The position numbers and the translations under genes were made by a program. From Clostridia bacterium (GTDB taxonomy: Bacteria; Bacillota; Clostridia; Oscillospirales; CAG-382), in contig JAGAUT010000085.1 in assembly GCA_017620655.1 (NCBI GenBank), positions 939 through 64,938 on the forward strand: a DNA stretch of 64,000 nt. Direction: 5' to 3'. Numbering within the stretch: position 1 is the first letter of the stretch; every line of letters starts with the position of its first letter. The notes beneath the pieces are model-generated. The model had not been told where the DNA came from. It searched no databases and worked only from the letters and a program-made list of their open reading frames with translations. Below are positions 2,995 to 62,541 of the stretch, one piece after another.

Positions 2995-3425
2995 TTTTCT
3001 TTTTCGTTGGTTTTATAGAGTGCTAACGTTATGTAAAGGGAGTTCCGCACTCTGCGGAGTGCGTTTCCCGTCACTTTTCGTGACCGAAAAGTAACCAAAA
3101 GGTCCCGCTCAAAAGGAGAGATGGCTCGGTTGAGGTTATTTAGAGTACAAACCTGCTCGCCTTGACCACTGTAAGGGTCAAGGCTCAAATTCTGCCAAAC
3201 CCACCGCATTTTTCTCAACCTCCGCTGACCTCTCTCCTTCGCCGCGGCGGCTTACCTCTCACATTTGGTGTGGGTTCATGTTTGTGATGAGTTTGACCGC
3301 TTGCGTTTATGGCGGTCAAACGGAATTGCACTCGTGCAATTAACACCGATTAATATCCCAAAAGTGTTGGTGCTAAGTTCTTTCTTTTTTGCTTACTTTT
3401 TTCTTTTCGGAAAGAAAAAAGTAAG
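2995..3425 (-). repeat. mosaic block A: at least 6 hairpin modules incl. R-like (3073-3092), 3160-3183, 3291-3321, 3324-3341 and T hairpin 3392-3425
   Basis: Perfect 15-bp T hairpin CTTACTTTTTTCTTT/AAAGAAAAAAGTAAG. Other modules have homologues at 62436-62466 and 10275-10307. Confidence 0.75.
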
Positions 3426-6608: not shown

Positions 6609-6825
6609 AATACGTTTCCTTTCCTGTTACTTTCTTAAGGAGAAAGTAACCAAAGACCTTTCAAGCCCAGCTCCTTTTCGCCAAACGCAAAAGTCCTTTG
6701 TTATATTCTCAATTGGAATTTGTTTTTGTATAGCACTTCTGGCAGTGCTGTTGCTCATTTTGCAAAGACTCCCCGAAATTCTTTCTTTTTTGCTTACTTT
6801 TTCTTTTCAGCAAAGAAAAAGTAAG
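6609..6825 (-). repeat. mosaic block B: R module (6626-6662) + T unit (~6715-6825)
   Basis: The R hairpin GTTACTTTCT/AGAAAGTAAC + CAAAGACCTTT matches 23801-23836 (reverse complement) over 23+11 nt. The T hairpin at 6793-6825 has a perfect 14-bp stem. Confidence 0.85.
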
Positions 6826-8019
6826 TTAATTCCTACCCAAAGGTGATATTTCACGGAGTCTGTTTACTACCTTTGTTACACACTCAACGATGTAATCAAC
6901 ATCAGCCTGTGTGGTTTCGTGGGAAAGTGTAAGTCTCAAAGAACCGTGTGCTATTTCATGGGGAAGCCCCATAGCAAGAAGCACATGTGAGGGTTCAAGC
7001 GACTTTGATGAACTAGCCGAGCCTGTTGATGCACAGATGCCCATCATGTCGAGCATAAGAAGCAGTGATTCGCCTTCGATATATTCAAATGTAAAGCTTG
7101 CAGTACCGGGAAGTCTCTTTGTGGGATGACCTGTAAGACGGGAGTTGGGAAGCTCGAGAAGACGTCTGATAAGGTCGTCTCTGAGAACAGCAAGGCGCGC
7201 ATTATCGTCCTGCATTTCTTCGTTTGCAATTTCGAGTGCCCTTGCCATACCGACAATACCGGGCATATTTTCAGTGCCGCCTCTTTTGCCCTTTTCCTGA
7301 CCGCCGCCCTCAATAAGAGCCTTACATACAACGCCGCTCTTGATATAAAGACCGCCCACGCCCTTGGGTGCACGGAACTTGTGTCCCGAAAAAGCAAGCA
7401 TATCAACGCCGAGATCGTGTGCGTTTACGGGAATATGACCTACAGCCTGTACCGCGTCTGTGAAAACAACAACCTTAGGATTCTTTTCCTTTACTCTCTT
7501 TGTGATTTCCTTAATAGGCTCAATTGTGCCGACTTCGTTATTTGCCATCATGATTGCAACAAGCGCCGTATCATCTCTCATTGCCGCCACAACATCATCG
7601 GGATTTACGGTTGCATTTTCGTCAACACCCACATATGTTACATCAATACCCTTCTTTTCAAGAGCCTTACATGTATGCATTACTGCGTGATGCTCAACCT
7701 TTGATGTTATAATATGGCATTTATCTGTCTTATTTCTTTCAAGATAGTTCTGAACTGCACCCTTGATAGCCCAGTTGTCGGACTCAGAACCGCAACCTGT
7801 AAAATATATTTCTTTGGCGTCGCATCCGAGAACGGAAGCAACCTTTTCTCTTGCCGAGTCAATATACTGCTTTGCCTCTCTTCCCTTCTGATGAAGGCTG
7901 GAGGGGTTGCCCGATACTTCGCCGAGAAGCGGAAGCATTGCCGCAAGCACCTTGGGATGCACCGAGGTTGTCGCCGCATTGTCGGCATATACAAATTTCT
8001 TATCGTGATCGTGAGACAT
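6826..8019 (-). CDS. nifS: class-V aminotransferase-fold cysteine desulfurase homologue (NifS/IscS type) with non-canonical active-site loop
   Basis: 397 aa. PLP lysine motif FSGHKF and C-terminal LEPSHVLLAMGL..EIAHGSLRL are present. The loop reads GICASTGSASSS instead of SSGSAC(T/S)S. Confidence 0.8.
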   Translation of the reverse strand: MSHDHDKKFVYADNAATTSVHPKVLAAMLPLLGEVSGNPSSLHQKGREAKQYIDSAREKVASVLGCDAKEIYFTGCGSESDNWAIKGAVQNYLERNKTDKCHIITSKVEHHAVMHTCKALEKKGIDVTYVGVDENATVNPDDVVAAMRDDTALVAIMMANNEVGTIEPIKEITKRVKEKNPKVVVFTDAVQAVGHIPVNAHDLGVDMLAFSGHKFRAPKGVGGLYIKSGVVCKALIEGGGQEKGKRGGTENMPGIVGMARALEIANEEMQDDNARLAVLRDDLIRRLLELPNSRLTGHPTKRLPGTASFTFEYIEGESLLLMLDMMGICASTGSASSSKSLEPSHVLLAMGLPHEIAHGSLRLTLSHETTQADVDYIVECVTKVVNRLREISPLGRN

Positions 8020-10321: not shown

Positions 10322-10559
10322 TACTAATCGGGATTGTTTTTTGCATTGCACTTCGGGCAGTATGGTTTGTTTTTTATCCTTAAATACCCCGAAGCTCTTT
10401 TCTTCTTGCTTACTTCTTCTTTTTCGTAAAGAAGTATTCTTTTAATTGGTATTTAGCTTTGCATGGCACTTCGGGCAGTACTGTTAGAATTATATCTCAG
10501 ATTCCCCGAAGTTCTTTTCTTCTTGCTTACTTCTTCTTTTCCGTAAAAGAAGAAGTAAG
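10322..10559 (-). repeat. two tandem ~118-bp T units
   Basis: CTTCGGG at 10351 and 10469, and CTTACTTC at 10409 and 10526, give a 117-118 bp period. The terminal hairpin at 10526-10559 has a perfect 15-bp stem. Same family as 6715-6825. Confidence 0.85.
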
Positions 10560-11279
10560 TTAAAACGGTATACTGTTATTATATCTTGTGGGAAGTCCGC
10601 TTTCATAGATATGAGAATCATTTGAAAGTGTCAGCATTTTTGGGAAAACAACATTATCTTTTTCCACGGCAAAGTCGATTACCGTCATGCTTGAATGGCA
10701 CATTGTAAAGTGGGTAGAATAAATCGGGTAAGGAACATCGAGAAGTGCACTCAAAAATGCGGTGCCGAAGCCTTCGTGGGCAAAGAGTGCAACCCTGTCA
10801 TTGTTTGGATTTTCTGCAATATAGTAACCCTTTTCCCTGTCGTGTCTGTAGCCGAGAGAAAGCATAAATGCATCCGCTTCCCTCTCGATTCTGAGAGTTC
10901 CTTCCTTGATTCTTGTGTTTTTGAATGCCTCATGGTCGTACCAGTTTATGCCCATAGCTCTTAATTCTTGGGACATAAGAAGCTTTTTGATGTGAGTATG
11001 CTGATAGCACCAGGTATAGAAGTTTTCGTCGTTGGGCATGGAAAAATCCTGCCATGCATACTGCTCGTTACACCAGTCAAGAATTTCAATTTCCTTCTTT
11101 AAAAGCTCTGCTGTGGGTTTGGCAGTAAGCATTGCACGGTTGGAGCTTGATGCATAAATCTTATCAAGTCCGTATCTTGCAAGTCTGTATTTTATCGCCT
11201 CTGCCTGCTCAAGTCCGAGTGGTGTTAAGCTGTCGGGGTTATATATGGGGTCTCCGTGTCTTATGTAGAAAAATAACAT
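10560..11279 (-). CDS. histidine phosphatase (phosphoglycerate-mutase-like) family protein
   Basis: 239 aa with the catalytic RHG motif at the N-terminus (FYIRHGDP) and a later HEGF motif. Confidence 0.75.
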   Translation of the reverse strand: MLFFYIRHGDPIYNPDSLTPLGLEQAEAIKYRLARYGLDKIYASSSNRAMLTAKPTAELLKKEIEILDWCNEQYAWQDFSMPNDENFYTWCYQHTHIKKLLMSQELRAMGINWYDHEAFKNTRIKEGTLRIEREADAFMLSLGYRHDREKGYYIAENPNNDRVALFAHEGFGTAFLSALLDVPYPIYSTHFTMCHSSMTVIDFAVEKDNVVFPKMLTLSNDSHIYESGLPTRYNNSIPF

Positions 11280-11305: not shown

Positions 11306-11418
11306 ACAATCCCTCAGTCGCTTTGCGACAGCTCCCTTTACACAAGGGAGCCATATTTACAGACAAGCCCTCCTTGTGTAAAGGAGGGTGTCATCCGCAT
11401 GGGTGACGGGAGGATTGT
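11306..11418. repeat. P-family inverted pair (MITE-like, ~113 bp)
   Basis: Arms 11306-11352 and 11367-11418 are reverse-complement versions of one unit: ACAATCCCTC box, variable hairpin, then CTCCCTTTACACAAGGGAG hairpin. Confidence 0.85.
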
Positions 11419-13931: not shown

Positions 13932-16900
13932 TTATTTACAATTATCGCAAGGCACGTTATATGCCGCAGCATCATCACCGTTTTTCACAACGATTACGAA
14001 TTCTGCCTCTCCGCTTTCATTTGCACAAACAAGTGCCTTTACATAATCGGCATAGGTTGTTTGATAATTATTATTTCCGTCAACGGATTTGTCATTATAG
14101 CAACGGATATAATTCTTTGCCTCTATGACATCCTCGTAACCAATCTTTTTGATAGTTGACCATTTAAGGAATGAACTTCCAAGAGACGAATACTCCATGA
14201 TCACAAACGCAGTGTCCTCAGTAACTGTCACAACATTTGACTGCTGCTTGTTTCCGAGAAAATCATTATATGTTGTGCCGCTATAGTTTTCAACGTACTC
14301 TGTGGCACAGTTTTTACATTCCAGAGTATTATCCACAGGAACGACTACCATTGCGTTTTCGTTTGCAGATTTTATCCACACACAGCTTGCCAGATTGATA
14401 CTGCCTACAAGTGCCGAAGTGCTGTCGTCAATCATTTCGTCTTCCGTAATCCTTACAACCGTTCCTTCCTTGAGTGCAGGAGTGCTTGTAAGGTTACTTG
14501 CCTTGGCATCAAATTTTACGGAGGGAATGTCTGAAGTTTTAATTCCTGTCAATGGGTTATAAACTTCATAATAGTATCTCCAGTTTTCGTCTGCATCCAG
14601 ACCCACATCATAGCTTGAAATGATATGGTAAGAGGACACGTCCTCGGGCTGTTTGCCGAATGTAACGTTCCAGCCAACGCAATACTTTGAAACAAGAATT
14701 GCATCATCCTCGTCAACATCTCCGTCTGCGTCAACATCCGACGCGTTAAGAAGGATATTCTTTACTGCATATTCCTTACCTGCGGCATACTGCTTGATTA
14801 TAAGCACGTCCGCAAGGCTTATTGCACCGTCATTGTTTGCATCGCCGAGGATATAGTCATTGACAACAACCGTACCGTCAAAGGATGCTGCATCATATGT
14901 GCTGTCATCTGCCTTCAGTATATTATCGGCACTTACGGAAACATAATACTTGCCCTCTGCCGCCTCTTCTCTGACACGGAACGTAAGTTTAATAACATCA
15001 CCGTCATAGGAGAATGCTTCCTGCGTACCATCGCCCTTGTAATTAAGAACGACTTTTGCTTCGGGCTCGCCAAGGCTGCTCTTAAGCTCGTCTATATGTC
15101 CGCAAAGGAATTCGGTGTCCTTCCAATCAAGCACTGTATTGTCAAATGAAATGTTGATAACAGCTTCCTTGATATCGACGAAATCTTCCACGCTGATTAT
15201 AACATCAACATCATCGCCGCGTCTTACGACGTCTGAGCTTGCTCTGACAGCAGATGCCACAACCTTATATTCATATGTTACAACTTCACTGTCATACATA
15301 CCGTCAATCACGGCAATTGCCTTGAGTGTAAGGCTCTGGGTAAGTGCGATTGGGGCTTTATATTCTCTGCCGTTTGTCATTGAGGGAGTTGTGCCGTCAA
15401 GAGTATAATAGATGGCAGCACCGCCTGTGGGGCTTGAAAGGGAAATCCGTGTTCCTTTGAGCACGGATCCAGACTCAACATTTGCTATGGGCTTCTCTGC
15501 CGTTTCCCAATCGGGCATTACTACAGTAATATCCTTTTCCTTGGTCTTATTGCCGTACTGTGCGGTTACTGTAATTCTTGTTTTACCTGCACTCTTGGGA
15601 ACAACTGTTGCTTCAACCCATCTGTATCCGTCTTCATCAATATATTCATTGTAAACAAGGTCGAGCACTTCAGGCTTTGCCACTGTCCATGTAACAACAT
15701 CAGTACAGCCTGTAGGCTTGATTTGTGCCGAGAGAACAACAGGCGTTCCTCTATATTTCGCTGTATCGGCGGAGGACTTGAGAACAATGTCAGTTGCCTT
15801 CTTTATTACGGTAACTTCAATGCTGTCGGTAAGTCCTGCCCTTGATGTTGCAGTAACTATTGCCTTACCGCTTGCAATACCCTTGATTTCTGCCTTGCCG
15901 TTGCCGTTATCCGTAACGGCAACGATTGTTTCGTCCGAGCTCTTCCATGTAACAACATCTGTTGTAAGACCGATTCTCGGGGTTGTTGTTACAGCAAGCT
16001 CAACCGTTCCATTTACCGTGATTACAGCGCTTTCTTCCTCGAAAGCCATGGTTTCAAGATCAACTCTCAAACCCGCTTTAAAGGAATTATTGAATGTGGT
16101 GAGTGCCTTTGTGAGTGCTGTTATCTCATCTTCGTAATCATCATCGGAATATCCGGCACTACCGTAAGAAGAAAGTGCTGTCTTTGCGGTATTGATTGCT
16201 GTGCCGAATGTGCGGACAGCGTCGGATGTTGTCCAAGTTTCATCGGGATAAACATCCTTGCCGTTTGTGCTGATATTCTTATCTTCAGAGAGTCTTTCGT
16301 TACATGCTTCGATAAGCTCGTAAAGCTCAAGTGCCGAGCCTTTATAGTCGGGTCTTGTTGTTGTTACAACATATACGTCCTTTGATACCACCGAGTTCTT
16401 ACTGCTTACTGTAAGATATGTACTTCCTGCGGACGGTTTGAAAGTGGATTCCACAAAGCGTCCACCGTAATTATAAGTATATGTATCGTCGATTTCATCG
16501 CCGTACTGGTCAAAGGTCTTTGCGTAAACTGTTACAGAAGGATAATTCCCTGCAGTACCGATAACGCTTATTTCGCTGATACTTTCTGTGCAATCCTTGT
16601 CTGCATACACTTCAATGCGGTCATACACGGGAGTCTCTCTGACAATCTGAACATAGACAGTCTCTGTTGTGCCGCCTGCTGCCGCAACAACGGTGAATGC
16701 CTGTTCCTTGGCTGTCTTTCCGATTGTAATTGTATTTCCGTCAATGGAAATATCCTCGCTGTTATTGAGAAGAGAAAGTTCGACCTGTTCATTGGTTACC
16801 GAAGGATATCCAAAACTGTCAAGAACCTCTGTTTCAACTTCTATCACATAATCGAAGGAATGAACACCTGCCACGGTGTACCGCTGATTCACTCCGCTGA

Positions 16901-17294
16901 TTACTATATTTGCACAGTTGGATGCACCCTCTGCAGAAAGGTAGCCTGCAAGATAAGGCTCCGCGAGGTCTGTACCGCCGACGATCAGGGTTGCATCATA
17001 ATATCCGTTGGGAACAAAGGGACCAAAGGTAACTGTTCCGTCATAATTCGAAGTGCTCTGCTCAAAGTAGAGGATATCACTGTCGTCGGAATTATTATAA
17101 GCTTCAACATAATTTGTCTGGTCATATGTGCCCTTCAGAACAAACATTATATATTCGCTGTTTGGTGTCATATCAAGCGAAACCTCATACATTCCGTCGT
17201 CATCGGGCAGGAAGGTTGCCGCCGAAGTGCCTATGGCAAGAATGCACATAAGTGCCGCCAATACACAGAAAATCAATGAAATCCTTTTTTTCAT
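13932..17294 (-). CDS. secreted multidomain protein with Big_2 repeats, cohesin-like module and internal dockerin
   Basis: 1120 aa with a signal peptide. Ig-like Big_2 segments (VTWKSSDETIVAV...). Dockerin duplicate DANNDGAISLADV / DVDADGDVDEDDA. A beta-sandwich cohesin-like segment lies just before it. Confidence 0.75.
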   Translation of the reverse strand: MKKRISLIFCVLAALMCILAIGTSAATFLPDDDGMYEVSLDMTPNSEYIMFVLKGTYDQTNYVEAYNNSDDSDILYFEQSTSNYDGTVTFGPFVPNGYYDATLIVGGTDLAEPYLAGYLSAEGASNCANIVISGVNQRYTVAGVHSFDYVIEVETEVLDSFGYPSVTNEQVELSLLNNSEDISIDGNTITIGKTAKEQAFTVVAAAGGTTETVYVQIVRETPVYDRIEVYADKDCTESISEISVIGTAGNYPSVTVYAKTFDQYGDEIDDTYTYNYGGRFVESTFKPSAGSTYLTVSSKNSVVSKDVYVVTTTRPDYKGSALELYELIEACNERLSEDKNISTNGKDVYPDETWTTSDAVRTFGTAINTAKTALSSYGSAGYSDDDYEDEITALTKALTTFNNSFKAGLRVDLETMAFEEESAVITVNGTVELAVTTTPRIGLTTDVVTWKSSDETIVAVTDNGNGKAEIKGIASGKAIVTATSRAGLTDSIEVTVIKKATDIVLKSSADTAKYRGTPVVLSAQIKPTGCTDVVTWTVAKPEVLDLVYNEYIDEDGYRWVEATVVPKSAGKTRITVTAQYGNKTKEKDITVVMPDWETAEKPIANVESGSVLKGTRISLSSPTGGAAIYYTLDGTTPSMTNGREYKAPIALTQSLTLKAIAVIDGMYDSEVVTYEYKVVASAVRASSDVVRRGDDVDVIISVEDFVDIKEAVINISFDNTVLDWKDTEFLCGHIDELKSSLGEPEAKVVLNYKGDGTQEAFSYDGDVIKLTFRVREEAAEGKYYVSVSADNILKADDSTYDAASFDGTVVVNDYILGDANNDGAISLADVLIIKQYAAGKEYAVKNILLNASDVDADGDVDEDDAILVSKYCVGWNVTFGKQPEDVSSYHIISSYDVGLDADENWRYYYEVYNPLTGIKTSDIPSVKFDAKASNLTSTPALKEGTVVRITEDEMIDDSTSALVGSINLASCVWIKSANENAMVVVPVDNTLECKNCATEYVENYSGTTYNDFLGNKQQSNVVTVTEDTAFVIMEYSSLGSSFLKWSTIKKIGYEDVIEAKNYIRCYNDKSVDGNNNYQTTYADYVKALVCANESGEAEFVIVVKNGDDAAAYNVPCDNCK

Positions 17295-18962: not shown

Positions 18963-19155
18963 ATGTTTCACCTCCCAAAAATAAAAAATGCCCTTTTCGA
19001 CCATAGAAAAAGGACAATGTAGGGAGAATATAAATACAAAATATCACTATTCTCATTAAATTACATCTTCCTCGACAGGCGAACCGTTGCCAACGGCTCA
19101 TTATAGTCTCTGACGGCACTTCTGCGCCGTCCGACCACCTGTTTTCTTCGGTCAA
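18963..19155 (-). promoter_or_regulatory. long rplJ 5' leader, candidate L10-leader autoregulatory RNA
   Basis: About 190 nt between the predicted promoter and the rplJ ATG, with several stems (e.g. CCGTTGGCAACGG). The position matches the Firmicutes L10 leader. The structure was not modelled. Confidence 0.45.
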
Positions 19156-19162
19156 CATGAGC

Positions 19163-19191
19163 ATATTACCACAAACAATTACGTTTGTCAA
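19163..19191 (-). promoter_or_regulatory. SigA-type promoter upstream of rplJ
   Basis: TTGACA (19191-19186), a 17-nt spacer, then TAATAT (19168-19163) on the minus strand. Confidence 0.5.
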
Positions 19192-21880: not shown

Positions 21881-22741
21881 ATGTTCAAAAGAAACGAAAA
21901 GAACGGCGTTTGTTTTTACACAAGTCCCACACTTGAAAAGTACGGCATAGTCCACGGCTTTTTTACCCGACACGGCGGTGTAAGCGGCGGCGATTTTGAT
22001 TCCCTCAACGTAAGTACGGCAAGAAAAGACAGAAGCGGAAGCCTTGACAATCAAAAAAACGTACTCGAAAACTACCGTATTGCCCTCTCGGCTCTCGGCA
22101 CTGTTCCCGAAAAAGCAGTCGGTGCAAAGCAGGTGCATGAAAACACGGTTTTAAGGGTGACAGACGAAGATTGTGCAAGAGGCATAAACCCGAGTCTTGC
22201 CGAATTATCCGGCTGTGACGGGTTGTTTCTTGACGGCTCGGCAAGAAAAATCGATGCTCTTTGCGTCAAGACCGCCGACTGTGTACCCATACTGCTTTCA
22301 TCAAAAGACGGAAAGGAAGTTTCTGCCGTTCATGCAGGCTGGCGCGGAACTGTCGCCGACATTGTAACAAAAGCGGCGGAAAGATTCACCTGTAAAAAAG
22401 AGGACATACTCTGTGCGATAGGACCTTGTATCGGCGTTTGCTGTTACGAGGTAGGCGAAGAAGTATATGAAGCTGTAAAAAGGTTATTTGCTTTCAAGGG
22501 CATTGAGGACAGGACAGACAGCATGTTCAGAAATGTCTGCTCCTGCTCGGCAAATACCAAGAAAAAAGCCAATCTTTCAGAGATAAACAGACAGCTTCTT
22601 ATTAACTTCGGCATACCCGAAGAAAACATTGATGTGTCGGAAATCTGCACGGCATGCCACGAGGATGAATTTTTCTCCCACAGAGCAAGCGGCGGATTTT
22701 CGGGGACTTTTCCATCAATCATCAAGCAGAATTCTAATTAA
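21881..22741 (+). CDS. pgeF: YfiH/PgeF (DUF152) purine-nucleoside phosphorylase / peptidoglycan editing factor family
   Basis: 286 aa with HGFFTRHGGVS, KTADCVPILL and HAGWRGT motifs. Confidence 0.85.
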   Translation: MFKRNEKNGVCFYTSPTLEKYGIVHGFFTRHGGVSGGDFDSLNVSTARKDRSGSLDNQKNVLENYRIALSALGTVPEKAVGAKQVHENTVLRVTDEDCARGINPSLAELSGCDGLFLDGSARKIDALCVKTADCVPILLSSKDGKEVSAVHAGWRGTVADIVTKAAERFTCKKEDILCAIGPCIGVCCYEVGEEVYEAVKRLFAFKGIEDRTDSMFRNVCSCSANTKKKANLSEINRQLLINFGIPEENIDVSEICTACHEDEFFSHRASGGFSGTFPSIIKQNSN

Positions 22742-22743
22742 AC

Positions 22744-22874
22744 GGCTCCCTTGTGCAAAGGGAGCTGGCAGCGTTAGCTGACTGAGGGATTGTCGCCAAA
22801 CTTCAAATTACAATCCCTCCGATTTTCGTCACGAATTATGTGACGAAAACCACCTCCCTTTACACAAGGGAGGC
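22744..22874. repeat. P-family pair (box-to-box orientation)
   Basis: Units 22744-22793 (reverse) and 22810-22874 (forward) share the boxes GAGGGATTGT / ACAATCCCTCC and the hairpin CCTCCCTTTACACAAGGGAGG. Confidence 0.85.
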
Positions 22875-22903
22875 TTACAAGATAAACTCAAAAGGATATT
22901 TCA

Positions 22904-23752
22904 ATGAAAGACATATACAACAAAGCATATCTTGAAATAACAAATGTATGTAACCTTTCCTGCTCATTCTGCAAGGGAACCGACAGGGACAAATGCTTTA
23001 TGTCGGAGGAAAATTTCACGGTTGCCGCAAAGAAGCTGAGACAGGTTACATCCTATATATATTTCCACATTCTCGGCGAGCCGACATTACATCCGAACCT
23101 CGAAAGGTTCCTTGACATTTGCCATGAGCTTGATTTCAAGGTTATCATAACCACCAACGGCACACTTCTGTCAAAGGTCGGGGATTTTTTGCTTGACTCC
23201 CCCATCCTGCACAAGGTAAACATATCCTTGCACGCATTGGAAGCAAACGAAAGGCTTTCCTTTGACGAATATCTTGACGGCTGTGCCGACTTTGCAAGGA
23301 AAATGTCGGAAAAAGGTAAAATATGCGTGCTTCGACTTTGGAACGGAGATTCTGACGGGAAGTACGGCAGCGGAAAGCTGAATGACGGTATAATGTCACG
23401 GTTGGAAAACAGCTTTGACAGGGCATTGTGGAAGCAAAACACAAAAGGCTTTCGGTTGTCGGACAAGCTGTTTCTGGAATTTGCAGAACGGTTTGAGTGG
23501 CGTGAAAATGATGATGACGAACAGGTGCGTTGCTACGGTCTTCGTGACCAGATAGGCGTGCTTGTTGATGGCAGGATTGTCCCTTGCTGTATTGACTGCG
23601 ACGGTGCAATAACTCTCGGCAACATTTTCACGGACGATATAATAAATGTAATAAACTCCCCTCTTGCTGTGGAAATGGCAGAGGGTTTCAGAAACGGAAA
23701 GGCCGTACATCCATACTGTAAAAAATGCGGGTTTGTAAGAACCCGACTGTGA
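22904..23752 (+). CDS. radical SAM protein with C-terminal Cys-rich (SPASM-like) region
   Basis: 282 aa. CNLSCSFC is the CxxxCxxC cluster motif. C-terminal PCCIDCDG...HPYCKKCGF. No precursor-peptide ORF seen nearby. Confidence 0.8.
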   Translation: MKDIYNKAYLEITNVCNLSCSFCKGTDRDKCFMSEENFTVAAKKLRQVTSYIYFHILGEPTLHPNLERFLDICHELDFKVIITTNGTLLSKVGDFLLDSPILHKVNISLHALEANERLSFDEYLDGCADFARKMSEKGKICVLRLWNGDSDGKYGSGKLNDGIMSRLENSFDRALWKQNTKGFRLSDKLFLEFAERFEWRENDDDEQVRCYGLRDQIGVLVDGRIVPCCIDCDGAITLGNIFTDDIINVINSPLAVEMAEGFRNGKAVHPYCKKCGFVRTRL

Positions 23753-23800
23753 CAAGAATCGAAATTGCGTATAAGCCGTTCTAATAAAGGTGCTAAATTA

Positions 23801-23957
23801 AAAGGTCTTTGCTTACTTTCTCCTTAAGAAAGTAAGGACAATCCCTCCGAGTTTTGCCAAGCAAAACCCACCTCCCTTTACACAAGGGAGGCATAGTTTC
23901 GAAAAAGCCCGCCTTGTGCAAAGGAGGGTGTCAGTCGAAGACTGACGGGAGGATTGT
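23801..23957. repeat. R module (23801-23836) followed by P-family inverted pair (23838-23892, 23907-23957)
   Basis: AAAGGTCTTTG + hairpin CTTACTTTCT/AGAAAGTAAG, then two P units with variable hairpins at 23851-23867 and 23930-23946. Confidence 0.85.
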
Positions 23958-23982
23958 AAAAATATAAGAAAGGCGTAAACAT

Positions 23983-24888
23983 ATGAACATTATAAATTCA
24001 ATCTACATATTACTTGCAGGCATATTCTGGGGAAGCATGGGACTTTTTGTCCATGTGCTTACAGACACATTCGGATTTTCTTCAATACAGGGTGCTGTAC
24101 TCAGAATCACAAGCTGTGCTTTGATTCTCTTTGTTTTTCTACTTGTATACAACAAAAAACTTTTAAAAATCAGCGTACGTGACATTCCGATACTTGCCCT
24201 GAACGGTCTTATAAGCGTGTTGCTTATGACGGTATTTTACTTCAGTTCCATAAGCAGCGACACGTCCATGTCAATTTCCGCCGTACTTCTTTATACGGCA
24301 CCGTTTATAGTAATGTTTCTTTCGTGTATTTTCTTTAAGGAAAAGATTACATTTCAAAAGATAGTTGCGCTTATTATTGCCTTTGCCGGCTGCTGTCTTG
24401 TATCACTCACAGAACCCGGATATTCTACGCCTTCGGGCATCATTCTCGCTCTTTTGTCGGCGGTTGCATATGCCCTTTACAGCATATTCGGAAGCATGGC
24501 TCTTAAAAGGAATCTTGAGCCTTTTACGGTTACTTTTTACTCTTTCTTGTTTGCATCTTTGGGCTGTATCGTCATCTTCTTTGTTACAGATATGCCGAAA
24601 AAGATATCCGGAGTTGAAAACCTGCCTGTGTTTGCCCTTGCCGTTTTTGCAACGGGTCTTATTACGGCAGTCCTTCCCTTCGTACTTTACACAAAAGGTC
24701 TTTCGGGAACAAGCCCGGCAAAAGCATCCATAATGGCATACATAGAGCCCATTTCTGCCTGCGTCTTCGGCTATTTCAGAGGTGAAAGCATGACTGCACT
24801 TATGATTTTGGGCATTTGTCTGACACTTGCTTCAATTGTATTCCTCAACATAAAAATACCGCATCTTTCGGGTAAGGACAAGCAATGA
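23983..24888 (+). CDS. EamA/DMT-superfamily transporter
   Basis: 301 aa with about 10 TM segments in two internally repeated halves. Confidence 0.75.
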   Translation: MNIINSIYILLAGIFWGSMGLFVHVLTDTFGFSSIQGAVLRITSCALILFVFLLVYNKKLLKISVRDIPILALNGLISVLLMTVFYFSSISSDTSMSISAVLLYTAPFIVMFLSCIFFKEKITFQKIVALIIAFAGCCLVSLTEPGYSTPSGIILALLSAVAYALYSIFGSMALKRNLEPFTVTFYSFLFASLGCIVIFFVTDMPKKISGVENLPVFALAVFATGLITAVLPFVLYTKGLSGTSPAKASIMAYIEPISACVFGYFRGESMTALMILGICLTLASIVFLNIKIPHLSGKDKQ

Positions 24889-26622: not shown

Positions 26623-26769
26623 TTTTATTCCCTACTTTCTTGGAAGAAAGTAGGCAAAGAACTTTTCATTTGGCTACTTTCTACAATTGGTTTAGCCGTT
26701 ATATTATTTTCTCGATTGGTGTTTCATTTTGATGCCGATAAGGCAGGCATCAAAATGAGTGCTGAAAAA
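26623..26769 (-). repeat. mosaic block G: R module (26631-26666) + conserved-loop hairpin (26725-26757)
   Basis: CCTACTTTCT/AGAAAGTAGG + CAAAGAACTTTT. The 12-bp hairpin CATTTTGATGCC/GGCATCAAAATG has flank CTCGATTGGTGTTTC, shared with 62371-62417. Confidence 0.8.
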
Positions 26770-27317: not shown

Positions 27318-27535
27318 GGCTCCCTCCGAGAGCGCGACGCGTCAATAAAACAACCCTGTGTGGTTGTTTTTAGCCAAAGCGGATTGTAAGCTGTGCTTGC
27401 AATCAGAGCAAAAGCTGTCAGCCTATGCTGACTGAGGGAGAGTGCGTATAATCAGTGCTTTTGCAGAACCAAATGCAACGCAGGCTCCTTCCGTCATTTT
27501 CTTCGAAAATGCCACCTCCCTCTCGGAGGGAGGCT
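27318..27535 (-). repeat. mosaic block H: degenerate P-like units and extra hairpins
   Basis: GGCTCCCTCCGAGAG (27318-27332) versus CCTCCCTCTCGGAGGGAGG (27515-27533). GTCAGC/GCTGAC+TGAGGGA (27417-27439) matches 22769-22790. Further hairpins at 27347-27371, 27382-27404 and 27495-27511. Confidence 0.7.
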
Positions 27536-52865: not shown

Positions 52866-53417
52866 TTACAGATTTCTGTTTGCAAGTGCCTTATACACTA
52901 TTGCCGCACCCACAAGGGTCATAATAAGCTCAGGAAGCATATACGCTCCGTTATATGCGACCGAGTAAACGAACGGGCTTCCCCATCCTTCAGGCATCCA
53001 TATATCAAATACAAATGAGCCCGAAATAATATGGCTGACAAATCTAAGGAATATAGCAAGTGCCGTTCCTGACATAACACCAACAAAACCTTTCTTGGCA
53101 AAAAGACCGGAAAGTCCAAGGACAGTGAACGGAATAATATAGTCAAAAGCTATCATACCTACCCATCTTGCGGCTGAAAGTCCCCAACCCATTGCAGCAG
53201 CAAAGTCAAGTGCCAGCTGAATGCAGGAATATACAAACGATGTGCCAAGTCCCCACTTTAAGCCATGTCTAATTGACATATAGCACACCGGCAGCATACT
53301 GAGAAGTGTTACAGACCCGCCAAGCGGCATCGGAATAATTTTTACAAGACTCAGTGCGGTTGAAAGTGCAATAACTATTGAGCACTCAACCATAATTTTT
53401 GTTTTACTCTTTTTCAT
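52866..53417 (-). CDS. thiT: ECF-transporter S component, thiamine-specific (ThiT)
   Basis: Trimmed to ATG 53417. 183 aa with 6 TM segments. Preceded directly by a TPP riboswitch. Confidence 0.75.
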   Translation of the reverse strand: MKKSKTKIMVECSIVIALSTALSLVKIIPMPLGGSVTLLSMLPVCYMSIRHGLKWGLGTSFVYSCIQLALDFAAAMGWGLSAARWVGMIAFDYIIPFTVLGLSGLFAKKGFVGVMSGTALAIFLRFVSHIISGSFVFDIWMPEGWGSPFVYSVAYNGAYMLPELIMTLVGAAIVYKALANRNL

Positions 53418-53435
53418 AGCAAAACCTCCGAAGAA

Positions 53436-53578
53436 ATAAAAAATACCGCACACAATATCGGTGCGGTACATACGCTTTTCTTCAAGCTAATCTCCCTACG
53501 CCGGTATTATCCGAACAGGTTTAAAGGGTTCGAAGCCACTGCTTCATCTCAGCCGTTTTTCAACAGCACCCCTGATAT
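53436..53578 (-). promoter_or_regulatory. TPP (THI-box) riboswitch with terminator expression platform
   Basis: Minus-strand reading gives GGGGTGCTG...GGCTGAGATGAAG...AACCCTTTAAACCTGTTCGGATAATACCGGCGTAGGGAG, the conserved TPP core. It is followed by hairpin TACCGCAC/GTGCGGTA (53444-53468) plus a U-tract, 18 nt before the thiT ATG. Confidence 0.9.
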
Positions 53579-53599
53579 TGTATTTTGCGGTTCGGGAGT

Positions 53600-60114: not shown

Positions 60115-60742
60115 TAAACATTTCGGAATTATAAGGATTTGGGACAAAATTCATGTCAGCGTTTTCTCCTTTTTTGCCCTTGTATGTTTCATTTCGGCTC
60201 AGGGGTTTATATATTCCTCGCTTTTTCTGTCATGCACTCTGCTTCATGAACTGTCGCACATTTTGTTTATGTACCTGTTTGGTGTAAAAATCTCAAAAAT
60301 TACCGTCTATCCCTTCGGCATTGACATTTCCGCCGACACTTCCCGTATCTCCTACAAAAAAGAACTCATCATCACCCTTGCCGGCAGTGCTTCAAATCTC
60401 ATCTTTGCCTTTATCGGTTGTGTTTTTCTTCAAAAGCACCCCTCTCCGCCGCTCTTGTTCTTTGTCATGTGCAACCTGTTTCTCGGCTGTATGAATCTCA
60501 TTCCCCTGTCTTTTTTTGACGGCGGTAAGGCTATTCGTCTTATTCTTTACGATTGTCTTGATATAGACAGAGCCTTTTACATTCACAAAGGACTAGACAT
60601 ATTCTCGGCATTGATTTTTATATGCTTTTCTGTTTTTTTAATGGCAGGCTCAAGCTTCAATTTGTCCGTAATTTGCGTTGTTGTTTACGCATCACTTTCA
60701 ACCTTTGCTTTATATATTAAAATTCCCTGTCGCAAGCCTTAA
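60107..60742 (+). CDS. M50-family site-2 protease (SpoIVFB-like)
   Basis: 211 aa with an HELSH zinc motif in a TM helix and a later NLIPLSFFDGG motif. Confidence 0.7.
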   Translation: MINKHFGIIRIWDKIHVSVFSFFALVCFISAQGFIYSSLFLSCTLLHELSHILFMYLFGVKISKITVYPFGIDISADTSRISYKKELIITLAGSASNLIFAFIGCVFLQKHPSPPLLFFVMCNLFLGCMNLIPLSFFDGGKAIRLILYDCLDIDRAFYIHKGLDIFSALIFICFSVFLMAGSSFNLSVICVVVYASLSTFALYIKIPCRKP

Positions 60743-60932
60743 TGCGACAGGGAATGGTTTGTTACGCGAATTATTCAGTTTGTTAATGACAAAAACCGCC
60801 CGCGATGTTTGCCGCGGTGCTTCACCGCACCTGTCGCAAGCCTTAATGCGACAGGGAATGGTTTGTTGCGCGAATTATTCAGTTTGTTAATTGCAAAAAC
60901 TGCCCGCTATGTTTGCCGCAGTGCTTCACCGC
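60726..60932 (+). repeat. family-X element, two direct tandem copies (104-nt period, ~93% identical)
   Basis: CCTGTCGCAAGCCTTAATGCGACAGGGAATGGTTTGTT... begins at 60726 and again at 60830. About 7 mismatches counted by eye. Confidence 0.9.
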
Positions 60933-62270: not shown

Positions 62271-62541
62271 ATATCTTTTCCTTTCCCCCTACTTTTCTTT
62301 CGAAAAAAAGCAGGCAAAAGAACTCGCAATTAGCACCATTCTGTCGGATTCTAAAAACGATTATTCGCTGCTCGATTGGAGTTTCATTTTGCCGTCAATA
62401 AGGCAGACGGCAAAATGATTACAATTTTTTATTAAGTTTGTCTGCTTGCGTTTATGGCAGACAAACGATGTTGGTTGAGCGACACCCGAAGCCGAACTTT
62501 TCACAAGCATTTCCCGTGAATTGCCGGCGGAGGCTCTCCGC
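62271..62541 (-). repeat. mosaic block J: degenerate R module (62288-62325), conserved-loop hairpin (62385-62417), hairpin 62436-62466, partial X (62478-62541)
   Basis: Each module has a homologue elsewhere in the window (26631-26666, 26725-26757, 3291-3321, 41885-41930). Confidence 0.8.

Follow-up and report, generated by a model that had tools for sequence, protein, structure and literature searches.

The 64-kb window analysed here (64,000 nt of contig JAGAUT010000085.1 from a Clostridia bacterium of the order Oscillospirales; positions below are those of the window) contains short repeated units consisting of a 5' box, a variable middle hairpin (mini-hairpin) and a conserved hairpin, all of which are located between housekeeping genes. 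Six strong and two degenerate units were identified, which we interpret as candidate intrastrand triple-helix motifs in which the box is the putative third strand. The conserved hairpin pattern yields eight strand-matches at four sites, compared with 0.05 expected from shuffling. A covariance model (R1), built from 33 units of other genomes and run on the window with filters off, recovers the six strong units with E-values of 1e-12 to 1e-23 and both degenerate units as weak matches (Table 1), in agreement with the original prediction of at least eight units occurring as inverted pairs. The three-part layout described there was found with every one of its strings and hairpin arms in place, and of the proposed degenerate site at 27318-27535 the two weak units were recovered, while 27318-27367 scored insignificantly (E 3.9). 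The predicted DNA folds of both strands of the six strong units consist of two adjacent hairpins (z -3.6 to -8.7) and an unpaired tail of ~10-13 nt (9 nt for 11364-11418(-), whose fold is less well defined).

The 5' box mirrors the conserved hairpin's pyrimidine arm and co-varies with this hairpin at a fixed register, running parallel to its purine arm. Among 179 distinct R1-aligned units the box tracks the purine arm at each position: third strand ATCCCTCC is combined with purine arm AAGGGAGG in 54 units, ATCCCTCA with AAGGGAGC in 59, ATCCCCCA with AAGGGGGC in 10, ACCCCTC(C/A) with AGGGGAG(G/C) in 12, ATCCTCCC with AAGGAGGG in three (including U2 of the window, and U6 with one purine-arm mismatch) and ATCCCTCT with AAGGGAGA in one. 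Box and hairpin of U2 are shifted together (ATCCTCCC / AAGGAGGG), retaining the mirror rule. In an alignment of 68 distinct box-plus-hairpin strings (A5), the parallel pair formed by columns 5 and 27 comprises 53 UA, 13 CG and two UG combinations and no others, columns 9 and 31 comprise 51 UA, 11 CG, one UG and five others, and columns 11 and 33 comprise 33 CG, two UA and one UG alongside 32 other cells, mainly A opposite C. None of 500 shuffles reached the observed parallel pairing, and slid registers scored far lower. A function of the box as a Watson-Crick switch was rejected: antiparallel Watson-Crick pairing with the purine arm in fixed register showed no covariation in A5, and the best Watson-Crick alternative in any register gave only a marginal signal, averaging 4.5 matches within and 4.1 between the 11 families described below (p 0.054).

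A scan defined by structure only (8-mer, hairpin and single base, followed by a pyrimidine arm, its complementary purine arm and the loop between them) revealed sister families with the arms CTCCCTC/GAGGGAG, CTCCCCC/GAGGGGG, CCCTCTC/GGGAGAG, CCCCTCTC/GGGGAGAG and CCTCATC/GGAGAAG, as well as ACCCCTC/AGGGGAG, which carries the loops GTT, GACA or CGA, and all of these families follow the mirror rule. Across 11 families, mirror matches average 6.1 of 7 within a family and 4.2 between families, a difference for which none of 20000 permutations was as high. A mirror score of 6/6 was obtained for 189 of 233 canonical units and for one of 117 antisense-read controls. Mirror symmetry combined with covariation in a parallel register is the signature of an intrastrand triple helix, here predicted to be composed of a hairpin and a third strand with the mini-hairpin as the joint. 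Mirror symmetry can neither be produced by templated copying nor be read by a symmetric protein; it is a requirement of Hoogsteen-type third-strand binding. The box, previously regarded as an end box forming a terminal inverted repeat and an anti-Shine-Dalgarno (anti-SD) string, appears instead as a putative third strand co-varying with the SD/anti-SD-like hairpin.

Both hairpins co-vary as well. In alignment A4, 95.6% of cells are paired and double-sided changes were found in 11 of 14 pairs; within the mini-hairpin they affect all six modelled pairs, with 92% of cells paired. None of 500 shuffles was as high and pairing collapsed in slid registers. The conserved hairpin is 96.7% paired in A5. 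The covariance model and covariation analysis thereby bear out the predicted selection on the mini-hairpin fold. The mini-hairpin had also been reported to differ in every copy, which holds among the window copies, but identical versions (e.g. GTCAGCTTCGCTGAC, GTCACGGC..GCCGTGCC and GTCAAAAATCAAAGATTTTTGCC) recur over many genomes and species. These hairpins constitute a shared repertoire recurring across species and triplex families, which, together with the absence of a reverse transcriptase (of a system like diversity-generating retroelements) among the 64 window open reading frames (ORFs) scanned with Pfam, speaks against the templated diversification that had been considered.

Table 1. 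Triplex-type units and A/T-rich relatives in the window. Positions of parts lie within the unit above them; R1 denotes the match to the covariance model.
Feature	Type	Position	Strand	R1 match	Sequence and remarks
U1	A-type	11306-11355	+ (C-rich strand)	11306-11352(+), 67.6 bits, E 8e-23	fold z -6.2 and -6.7
U1 third strand		11309-11316	+		ATCCCTCA
U1 mini-hairpin		11317-11329	+
U1 linker		11330	+		A
U1 triplex hairpin		11331-11351	+		G-CTCCCTT TACAC AAGGGAG-C
U2	"T-type"	11364-11418	- (+ is G-rich strand)	11367-11418(-), 47.1 bits
U2 hairpin		11368-11388	read on +		CCCTCCTT GTGTA AAGGAGGG
U2 linker		11389	read on +		T
U2 mini-hairpin		11390-11407	read on +		GTCATCC GCAT GGGTGAC; G.T wobble on + strand only
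U2 reverse-Hoogsteen strand (predicted)		11408-11415	read on +		GGGAGGAT, then tail TGT
U3	A-type	22744-22793	- (+ is G-rich strand)	22744-22793(-), 67.2 bits	left half of head-to-head pair
U3 hairpin		22745-22765	read on +
U3 linker		22766	read on +		T
U3 mini-hairpin		22767-22782	read on +		GTTA loop; second pair is a G.A mismatch
U3 reverse-Hoogsteen strand (predicted)		22783-22790	read on +		TGAGGGAT
Spacer between U3 and U4 boxes		22794-22809			16 nt, CGCCAAACTTCAAATT
U4	C-type	22810-22877	+ (C-rich strand)	22810-22874(+), 52 bits	predicted fold
U4 third strand		22813-22820	+
U4 mini-hairpin		22821-22851	+		long
U4 triplex hairpin		22853-22873	+
U5	C-type	23838-23895	+ (C-rich strand)	23838-23892(+), 54.1 bits	left half of tail-to-tail pair
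U6	T-type	23904-23957	- (+ is G-rich strand)	23907-23957(-), 46.6 bits	predicted fold
U6 mini-hairpin			read on +		GTCAGTC GAA GACTGAC, GAA triloop
U6 reverse-Hoogsteen strand (predicted)			read on +		GGGAGGAT, then TGT
U8	degenerate	27389-27443	-	27389-27443(-), 15.8 bits, E 8e-4	box and mini-hairpin retained (ACTCTCCCTCAG TCAGC..GCTGA); triplex hairpin gone
U7	sister-family member	27486-27534	+	27486-27534(+), 20 bits, E 2e-5	third strand CTCCTTCC; hairpin CCTCCCTC TCG GAGGGAGG; core mirror matches 5/6
A/T-rich copy		3381-3425	+
A/T-rich copy		6627-6664	-
A/T-rich copy		6783-6826	+
A/T-rich copy		10399-10430	+
A/T-rich copy		10515-10560	+
A/T-rich copy		23798-23835	+		adjoins GC-type pair at 23838

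The genes neighbouring the window units encode a histidine phosphatase and GH127, Cu-oxidase_4, radical SAM (rSAM)/SPASM and EamA proteins, and a GNAT protein and an aldehyde dehydrogenase. Two of the window pairs are tail-to-tail with the boxes outside (U1 and U2, for example, are separated by a gap of 14 nt), and two are head-to-head with the boxes inside. The proposed element ends ACAATCCC...GGGATTGT therefore apply to two window pairs, but not to 22744-22874, where the boxes are internal. The predicted fold of U2 amounts to -12.9 kcal/mol on the G-rich and -10.8 kcal/mol on the C-rich strand. The family of U7 recurs at loci L144, L140, L161 and L237. The hairpin of a unit is followed 3' by C and then TTT, with T at 77, 73 and 59% of positions +1 to +3.

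Another repeat family of the window is A/T-rich and also appears to be an intrastrand triplex motif: a third strand precedes G(C/G)TTAC, after which come a pyrimidine arm and a purine arm, separated by a loop of 4-5 nt, and GTAA. Its third strand is a mirror of the purine arm and co-varies with that arm. Mirror matches are 10/10 in each of TTTCTTTTTT/AAAGAAAAAA, TTTTCTTCTT/AAAAGAAGAA and CTTTTTCTTT/GAAAAAGAAA, and further copies were found at L003:3114, L127:2449 and L133:1492.

Several features distinguish the two strands of the GC-type units. Mini-hairpin mismatches on the C-rich strand are T.C (88), A.C (34) and C.C (12) versus two G.T; on the G-rich strand they correspond to G.A, G.T and G.G, which are the least harmful kinds of mismatch, and the pattern repeats in the genome and viral sets separately. 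Among triloops with a C-G closing pair, 85 read GNA on the G-rich strand, equivalent to TNC on the C-rich strand, and five show the reverse; frequent 4-nt mini-hairpin loops on the G-rich strand are GTAA and GTTA. DNA mini-hairpins with GNA loops of the d(GCGAAGC) type, or with the variants GTAA and GTTA, have exceptional stability, while TTC loops are of an ordinary kind (PMC13037366; PMC3201870). When the G-rich strand is read, each of the eight positions yields a purine-motif triple: position 1 is T.A-T or G.G-C, positions 2-7 are A.A-T or G.G-C, and the closing pair is G.G-C or T.C-G. The C-rich reading has irregularities at position 1 (A over A-T) and where X = A lies over C-G, and most of its triples would require cytosine protonation. 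For RNA, purine-motif triplexes have been reported not to occur (PMC4666352). Mismatches, loops, triples and this report on RNA together favour single-stranded G-rich DNA, which is likely the strand that would fold into a purine-motif triplex. A G-quadruplex or i-motif was rejected on inspection, as one unit has only two GGG (or CCC) tracts per strand.

Intrastrand triplex repeats of E. coli and other Proteobacteria comprise the BoxC/PIT/TM_ECO elements (Hoyne and Maher, 2000, as cited in PMC4666352). TM_ECO follows the pattern CCCTCNCCC N3-6 GGGNGAGGG N3 GGGNGAGGG, with class II on the G-rich strand; it shows neither promoter nor terminator activity and no orientation bias, has "palindromic" occurrences and is tied to variable loci (PMC4666352). 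It forms a stable single-stranded DNA triplex in vitro that was undetected in vivo (Holder et al., 2015; PMC4666352). By their predicted fold, the present units are a hairpin-bridged variant of this repeat class. Like BoxC/PIT/TM_ECO, they are interspersed and intergenic, with one strand reading pyrimidine arm, purine arm and third purine strand (class II), and with a complement of the pyrimidine-motif class and a close composition (CCCTC / GAGGG). They likewise occur singly or in "palindromic" pairs at variable loci, in bacteria without association with orientation or gene function, and without a linked gene. The three-block rule and polarity of the intrastrand triplex class (II/IV, PMC4666352) are followed by the same 189 of 233 canonical units as opposed to one of 117 controls, and seven core triples plus a closing pair fall within its stem length of 6-15 nt. 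Its loop lengths of 1-6 nt accommodate the first loop (3-5 nt), but not the connection to the third strand, a hairpin of 13-45 nt plus one base. Since the published search (ITxF) is restricted to loops of 1-6 nt, it could not have found the present units.

Unlike TM_ECO, the units have another sequence (CTCCCTT N5 AAGGGAG ... GAGGGAT with an intervening hairpin) and reside in another host phylum (Clostridia and their phages). Furthermore, their second loop is a mini-hairpin of 13-45 nt instead of 3 nt, they have seven to eight triples instead of nine, they form heterotypic A/C pairs (53 of 55), and they include many sister families with co-varying third strands, a covariation of which no report was found for TM_ECO. 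The units share with H-DNA the mirror symmetry of pyrimidine tracts and the Hoogsteen/reverse-Hoogsteen logic, but their tracts measure only 7-8 nt and the acceptor duplex would be an intrastrand hairpin with compensatory changes, so that, unlike H-DNA, the fold needs one strand only. As in RNA triple helices (ENE/MALAT1, pseudoknot riboswitches), a pyrimidine strand could occupy the major groove of a hairpin and possibly protect a 3' end; those RNAs, however, contain U.A-U stacks with A-rich tails or pseudoknots, whereas the units contain mostly G-C triples and a strand asymmetry that favours the other strand. The C-GNA-G and GTAA/GTTA loops of the G-rich strand resemble the d(GCGAAGC)/GNA mini-hairpins of the phage G4 origin, ssiA and N4 promoters, motifs that mark functional single-stranded DNA sites and resist nucleases (PMC13037366). 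In contrast to those single-strand initiation signals, the present mini-hairpins are one module of a triplex unit and are chromosomally dispersed, not placed at an origin.

An exact scan for the 19-nt hairpin identified at least 120 loci in one-genome-per-species contigs, with nearly all of those listed in gut metagenome-assembled genomes (MAGs) of Oscillospiraceae, Acutalibacteraceae, Faecousia, Ruminococcus or unclassified Clostridia, and at least 120 loci in IMG/VR viral contigs. R1 matches in the window and the genome loci total 276. The cultured-phage collection yielded a single weak hit, in an unannotated faecal phage. The design of the superfamily co-varies over ~100 species of gut Clostridia and many phage contigs. 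With Rfam 15, the whole window matches only a thiamine pyrophosphate (TPP) riboswitch and a ribosomal protein L10 leader, and a permissive scan of 22650-24050 stayed at chance level (20 bits or less); the literature library searched contained no match for the unit sequence strings or for repetitive extragenic palindrome (REP) elements of Oscillospiraceae. The repeat superfamily is real and abundant, and no description of it was found. A match to a described non-coding RNA family, which would have contradicted the earlier interpretation, did not appear in the gathering or permissive scans, although intrastrand triplex repeats as a class have been described (PMC4666352).

Inverted doublets are common, and single units make up 95 of 179 unit groupings. 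Unit adjacencies are head-to-head in 72 cases, tandem in 15 and tail-to-tail in eight, so that the predicted inverted pairs are real, with the head-to-head form (boxes central) as the family-wide rule, dominant in bacteria. Favoured lengths of head-to-head spacers are 16, 22, 31 and 44 nt, most commonly 16 nt, and their sequence is unconserved. An A-type unit is combined with a C-type unit in 53 of 55 full pairs, and the halves also differ in their mini-hairpins, by which a long perfect hairpin is avoided. This architecture bears on whether the units are classical miniature inverted-repeat transposable elements (MITEs) of 113-130 bp with terminal inverted repeats ACAATCCC...GGGATTGT and an end-binding transposase. 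The existence of inverted pairs, two of which end in boxes in the window, a size below 200 bp and presence/absence differences between close relatives would fit such elements. Boxes are, however, internal in 72 of 80 inverted pairs, more than half of the groupings are single units, and the halves differ in type and mini-hairpin. In addition, no target-site duplication was seen at the filled/empty sites examined and no transposase near 120 loci or in the window, and the mirror covariation would be left unexplained, which makes a classical MITE quite improbable. The units resemble the BOX, RUP and Correia elements of Firmicutes and Neisseria in being small, multi-copy, intergenic, modular and able to seed spurious ORFs, but those lack the mirror-repeat logic, and the ends of the present units do not generally appear to be conserved terminal inverted repeats and no target duplication or related insertion sequence was found. 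Of the MITE-like nature first proposed, mobility remains plausible because orthologous sites in relatives are empty.

In relatives whose rSAM is 77-93% identical, the gap between Cu-oxidase_4 and rSAM measures 1-16 nt compared with 162 nt in the window, and that between rSAM and the next gene 2-172 nt (43-172 nt if this is EamA) compared with 230 nt; the window units are absent from both intergenic sites. In closer relatives (rSAM 94-96% identical), the pair at 23838-23957 is absent from the orthologous site, as in L131, L132 and L135, U3 is kept, and the position of U4 (22810-22874) is occupied by a different, degenerate unit, which represents turnover. Such differences between orthologous sites indicate that units are gained, lost and replaced on short time scales. 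The filled/empty comparison at 23838-23957 revealed a replacement and not a clean insertion, without duplication, and flank-joining BLAST over all loci yielded a single case (viral), again a replacement; a target-site duplication was found at neither of these two sites.

Mobilisation in the manner of REPs and their doublets (REPINs) by an HUH/Y1 enzyme encoded elsewhere, either a REP-associated tyrosine transposase (RAYT) or an IS200/IS605-type TnpA, would be a specific version of the mobilisation step proposed below, with triplex and mini-hairpin as the recognition fold. The units are short, structured and intergenic, form inverted doublets, are non-autonomous, vary in presence, are expected in hundreds of copies and have no linked gene (all-against-all comparison of 743 ORFs from 120 loci gave no recurrent neighbour), and strand-specific folding signals fit a single-stranded DNA substrate. 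We nevertheless consider this clearly unlikely, as neither a RAYT nor a Y1 domain was found in the window or in ~820 kb of loci, there is no conserved tetranucleotide of the GTAG kind, and known RAYT substrates are plain hairpins and not triplexes; two hairpins with a mirrored third strand also differ from the single imperfect palindrome of REPs. The search for Y1/RAYT or other transposases came back empty as well for the 64 window ORFs, which encode only housekeeping functions in Pfam scans.

The SD/anti-SD-like strings suggested that units could sequester or mimic the ribosome-binding sites of neighbouring genes. GGAGG and CCTCC strings are indeed present, the G-rich tail at 23946-23957 can be aligned to what was ancestrally the ribosome-binding region of EamA, and viral copies often lie 10-25 nt upstream of a ribosome-binding site. 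Yet units are found in either orientation, whether the neighbouring genes are convergent, divergent or co-directional, and at varying distances to start codons, and sister families without SD strings (CCCTCTC/GGGAGAG, CCTCATC/GGAGAAG and the A/T-rich family) share the architecture, making translational regulation extremely improbable.

On balance, we consider it probable that the units are intrastrand triple-helix motifs of a superfamily of Oscillospirales-type gut Clostridia and their phages, working as a single-stranded G-rich DNA fold. On this strand, read 5' to 3', a pyrimidine arm and a purine arm separated by a loop of 3-5 nt would form a hairpin of 7-8 bp, followed by one linker base, the mini-hairpin, usually capped by a C-GNA-G triloop, and an 8-nt purine-rich strand mirroring the purine arm. 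This strand could lie antiparallel to the purine arm in the major groove (G.G-C, A.A-T and T.A-T, closing T.C-G), and the complementary C-rich strand would be the corresponding pyrimidine-motif version. The hairpin would nucleate once the DNA is single-stranded, be it during replication or repair, upon extrusion driven by supercoiling, or as an intermediate of single-stranded transfer or transposition. The very stable mini-hairpin would then act as a rigid connector that brings in the third strand, resulting in a compact triplex. The fold might then be recognised by a trans-acting structure-specific activity, or stall or prime a polymerase, and would in this way govern how these non-autonomous elements spread and persist, rearrangement hot spots being a by-product. 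Joining A-type and C-type units head-to-head would present one G-rich unit per DNA strand while avoiding a perfect long palindrome. As mechanism of spread and cellular role, we infer a mobilisation signal, a replication or priming obstacle, or an RNA element. The conservation of the mirror rule argues that the putative triplex is under selection and matters in living cells. More tentatively, selection may keep a mini-hairpin-bridged triplex intact throughout an order of gut bacteria and its phages, probably at hundreds of copies per genome, or else a pH-sensitive RNA triplex in phage operons, a proposition about which we are somewhat doubtful.

A number of observations weigh against this interpretation. 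The copies are kin by descent, so that cell counts overstate the number of independent events, and the number of independent families is 11. The purine-motif reading also relies on taking T.C-G as an accepted purine-motif triple. No target-site duplication, defined ends or mobilising enzyme were found, and sites differ by replacement. The triplex is here a prediction from sequence, and that of TM_ECO was unseen by in vivo footprinting (PMC4666352). Finally, viral single units are biased towards the C-rich strand as the coding strand, with raw counts of 45 versus 16, 23 versus 7 (p 0.005) after collapsing related loci, 16 versus 5 in a strict set and 12 versus 8 in a stricter set with identical units collapsed. 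This bias of ~3:1, which is suggestive only, suits an RNA-level role and is not predicted by the model of G-rich single-stranded DNA; it may stem from a role in RNA or from selection against strong SD-like G-rich strings in phage operons.

As an RNA element, the transcribed C-rich strand would fold into two hairpins with the 5' pyrimidine tract as an RNA triple helix (U.A-U and C+.G-C) and would give protection or insulation to the 3' ends of mRNAs or to the regions between cistrons, as REP hairpins or triple-helix 3'-end stabilisers do, with head-to-head pairs serving both directions. Most viral single units are in sense orientation and lie downstream of a stop codon, ahead of the next ribosome-binding site, a C and TTT follow the unit, and pyrimidine-type intrastrand triplexes can form in RNA according to work cited in PMC4666352. 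Five to six of the eight triples would, however, be contiguous C+.G-C, which requires protonation, neither A over A-U (position 4) nor X = A over C-G belongs to the pyrimidine motif, the mismatches of the C-rich strand are the most destabilising ones (U.C, A.C and C.C), and UNC loops are unremarkable. Moreover, bacterial single units show no orientation bias (13 versus 12; 9 versus 15), at least four T among the next six bases occur in only 41% of units, and no Rfam family matches. We therefore regard an RNA element as fairly unlikely. An intrinsic terminator was rejected, as only three positions are T-rich and these follow an intervening C, the 41% of units with at least four T in six are a minority, and orientation in bacteria is random.

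The existence and role of intrastrand DNA triplexes in cells has been an open question since the BoxC/PIT elements were described, and third-strand covariation in 11 families and ~100 species is the kind of evidence used to accept RNA structures. If selection indeed keeps such a triplex intact, the units would prove by comparative genomics that triplexes of this kind arise and are of consequence in vivo, and would imply a structure-specific partner, for example a mobilising enzyme, a primase or polymerase signal, or a landmark that excludes single-stranded-DNA-binding protein. In practical terms, the units are common in gut Clostridia MAGs and phage contigs, where they break assemblies and sit at synteny breakpoints, their strong SD-like strings can mislead gene callers, and their long hairpin connector renders them invisible to the published triplex finder.

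Several loci contain additional repeats at or near units. L021:1700-2520 harbours a dense array of seven units within 800 bp, and L006:780-1920 contains 453-bp tandem repeats, each with units. In L161 and L229 (viral), the 16-nt half-hairpin CCTTTGCACAAGGGAG is tandemly expanded to 3-4 copies 3' of a unit, which looks like replication slippage at the triplex hairpin. Heptamer runs of AGGAATT/AGGAGTT in relatives (L124:2350-2400, L127:1480-1500, L129:1480-1500 and 2350-2395) occupy intergenic sites at which the window has triplex units. In L128:2350-2520, an insertion of ~130 nt 3' of rSAM contains a hairpin TTTGACCGC..GCGGTCAAA and the AT-rich triplex element; on its flanks, the rSAM 3' end is present as an imperfect direct repeat of 32 nt. 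At L122:3934, on a Logan contig and corresponding to window position 23837/23838, hisS comes directly after rSAM and the AT-rich repeat, in place of the GC-type pair and EamA. The break coincides with the repeat border; it may represent either a real rearrangement or an assembly chimera via the 38-nt repeat, and was not used as evidence.

The window also contains features outside the triplex-type repeats. The TPP riboswitch at 53476-53583(-) (76 bits) lies upstream of a YuaJ-type thiamine transporter (52866-53471(-)), and the L10 leader at 18974-19169(-), with 44.2 bits just over the cut-off, lies upstream of the L10 gene (18426-19004(-)); both are ordinary-looking. A 103-nt direct duplication with 94% identity (60726-60932) is located between genes for peptidase M50 and PTAC, and a 57-nt repeat with 79% identity and a hairpin TCATTTTGATGCC..GGCATCAAAATGA occurs at 26702-26758 and 62362-62418. 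Furthermore, 13932-17294(-) encodes a protein of 1120 aa with dockerin type I, Big_2 and CHB_HEX_C domains, which fits a cellulosome-type, Ruminococcus-like host.

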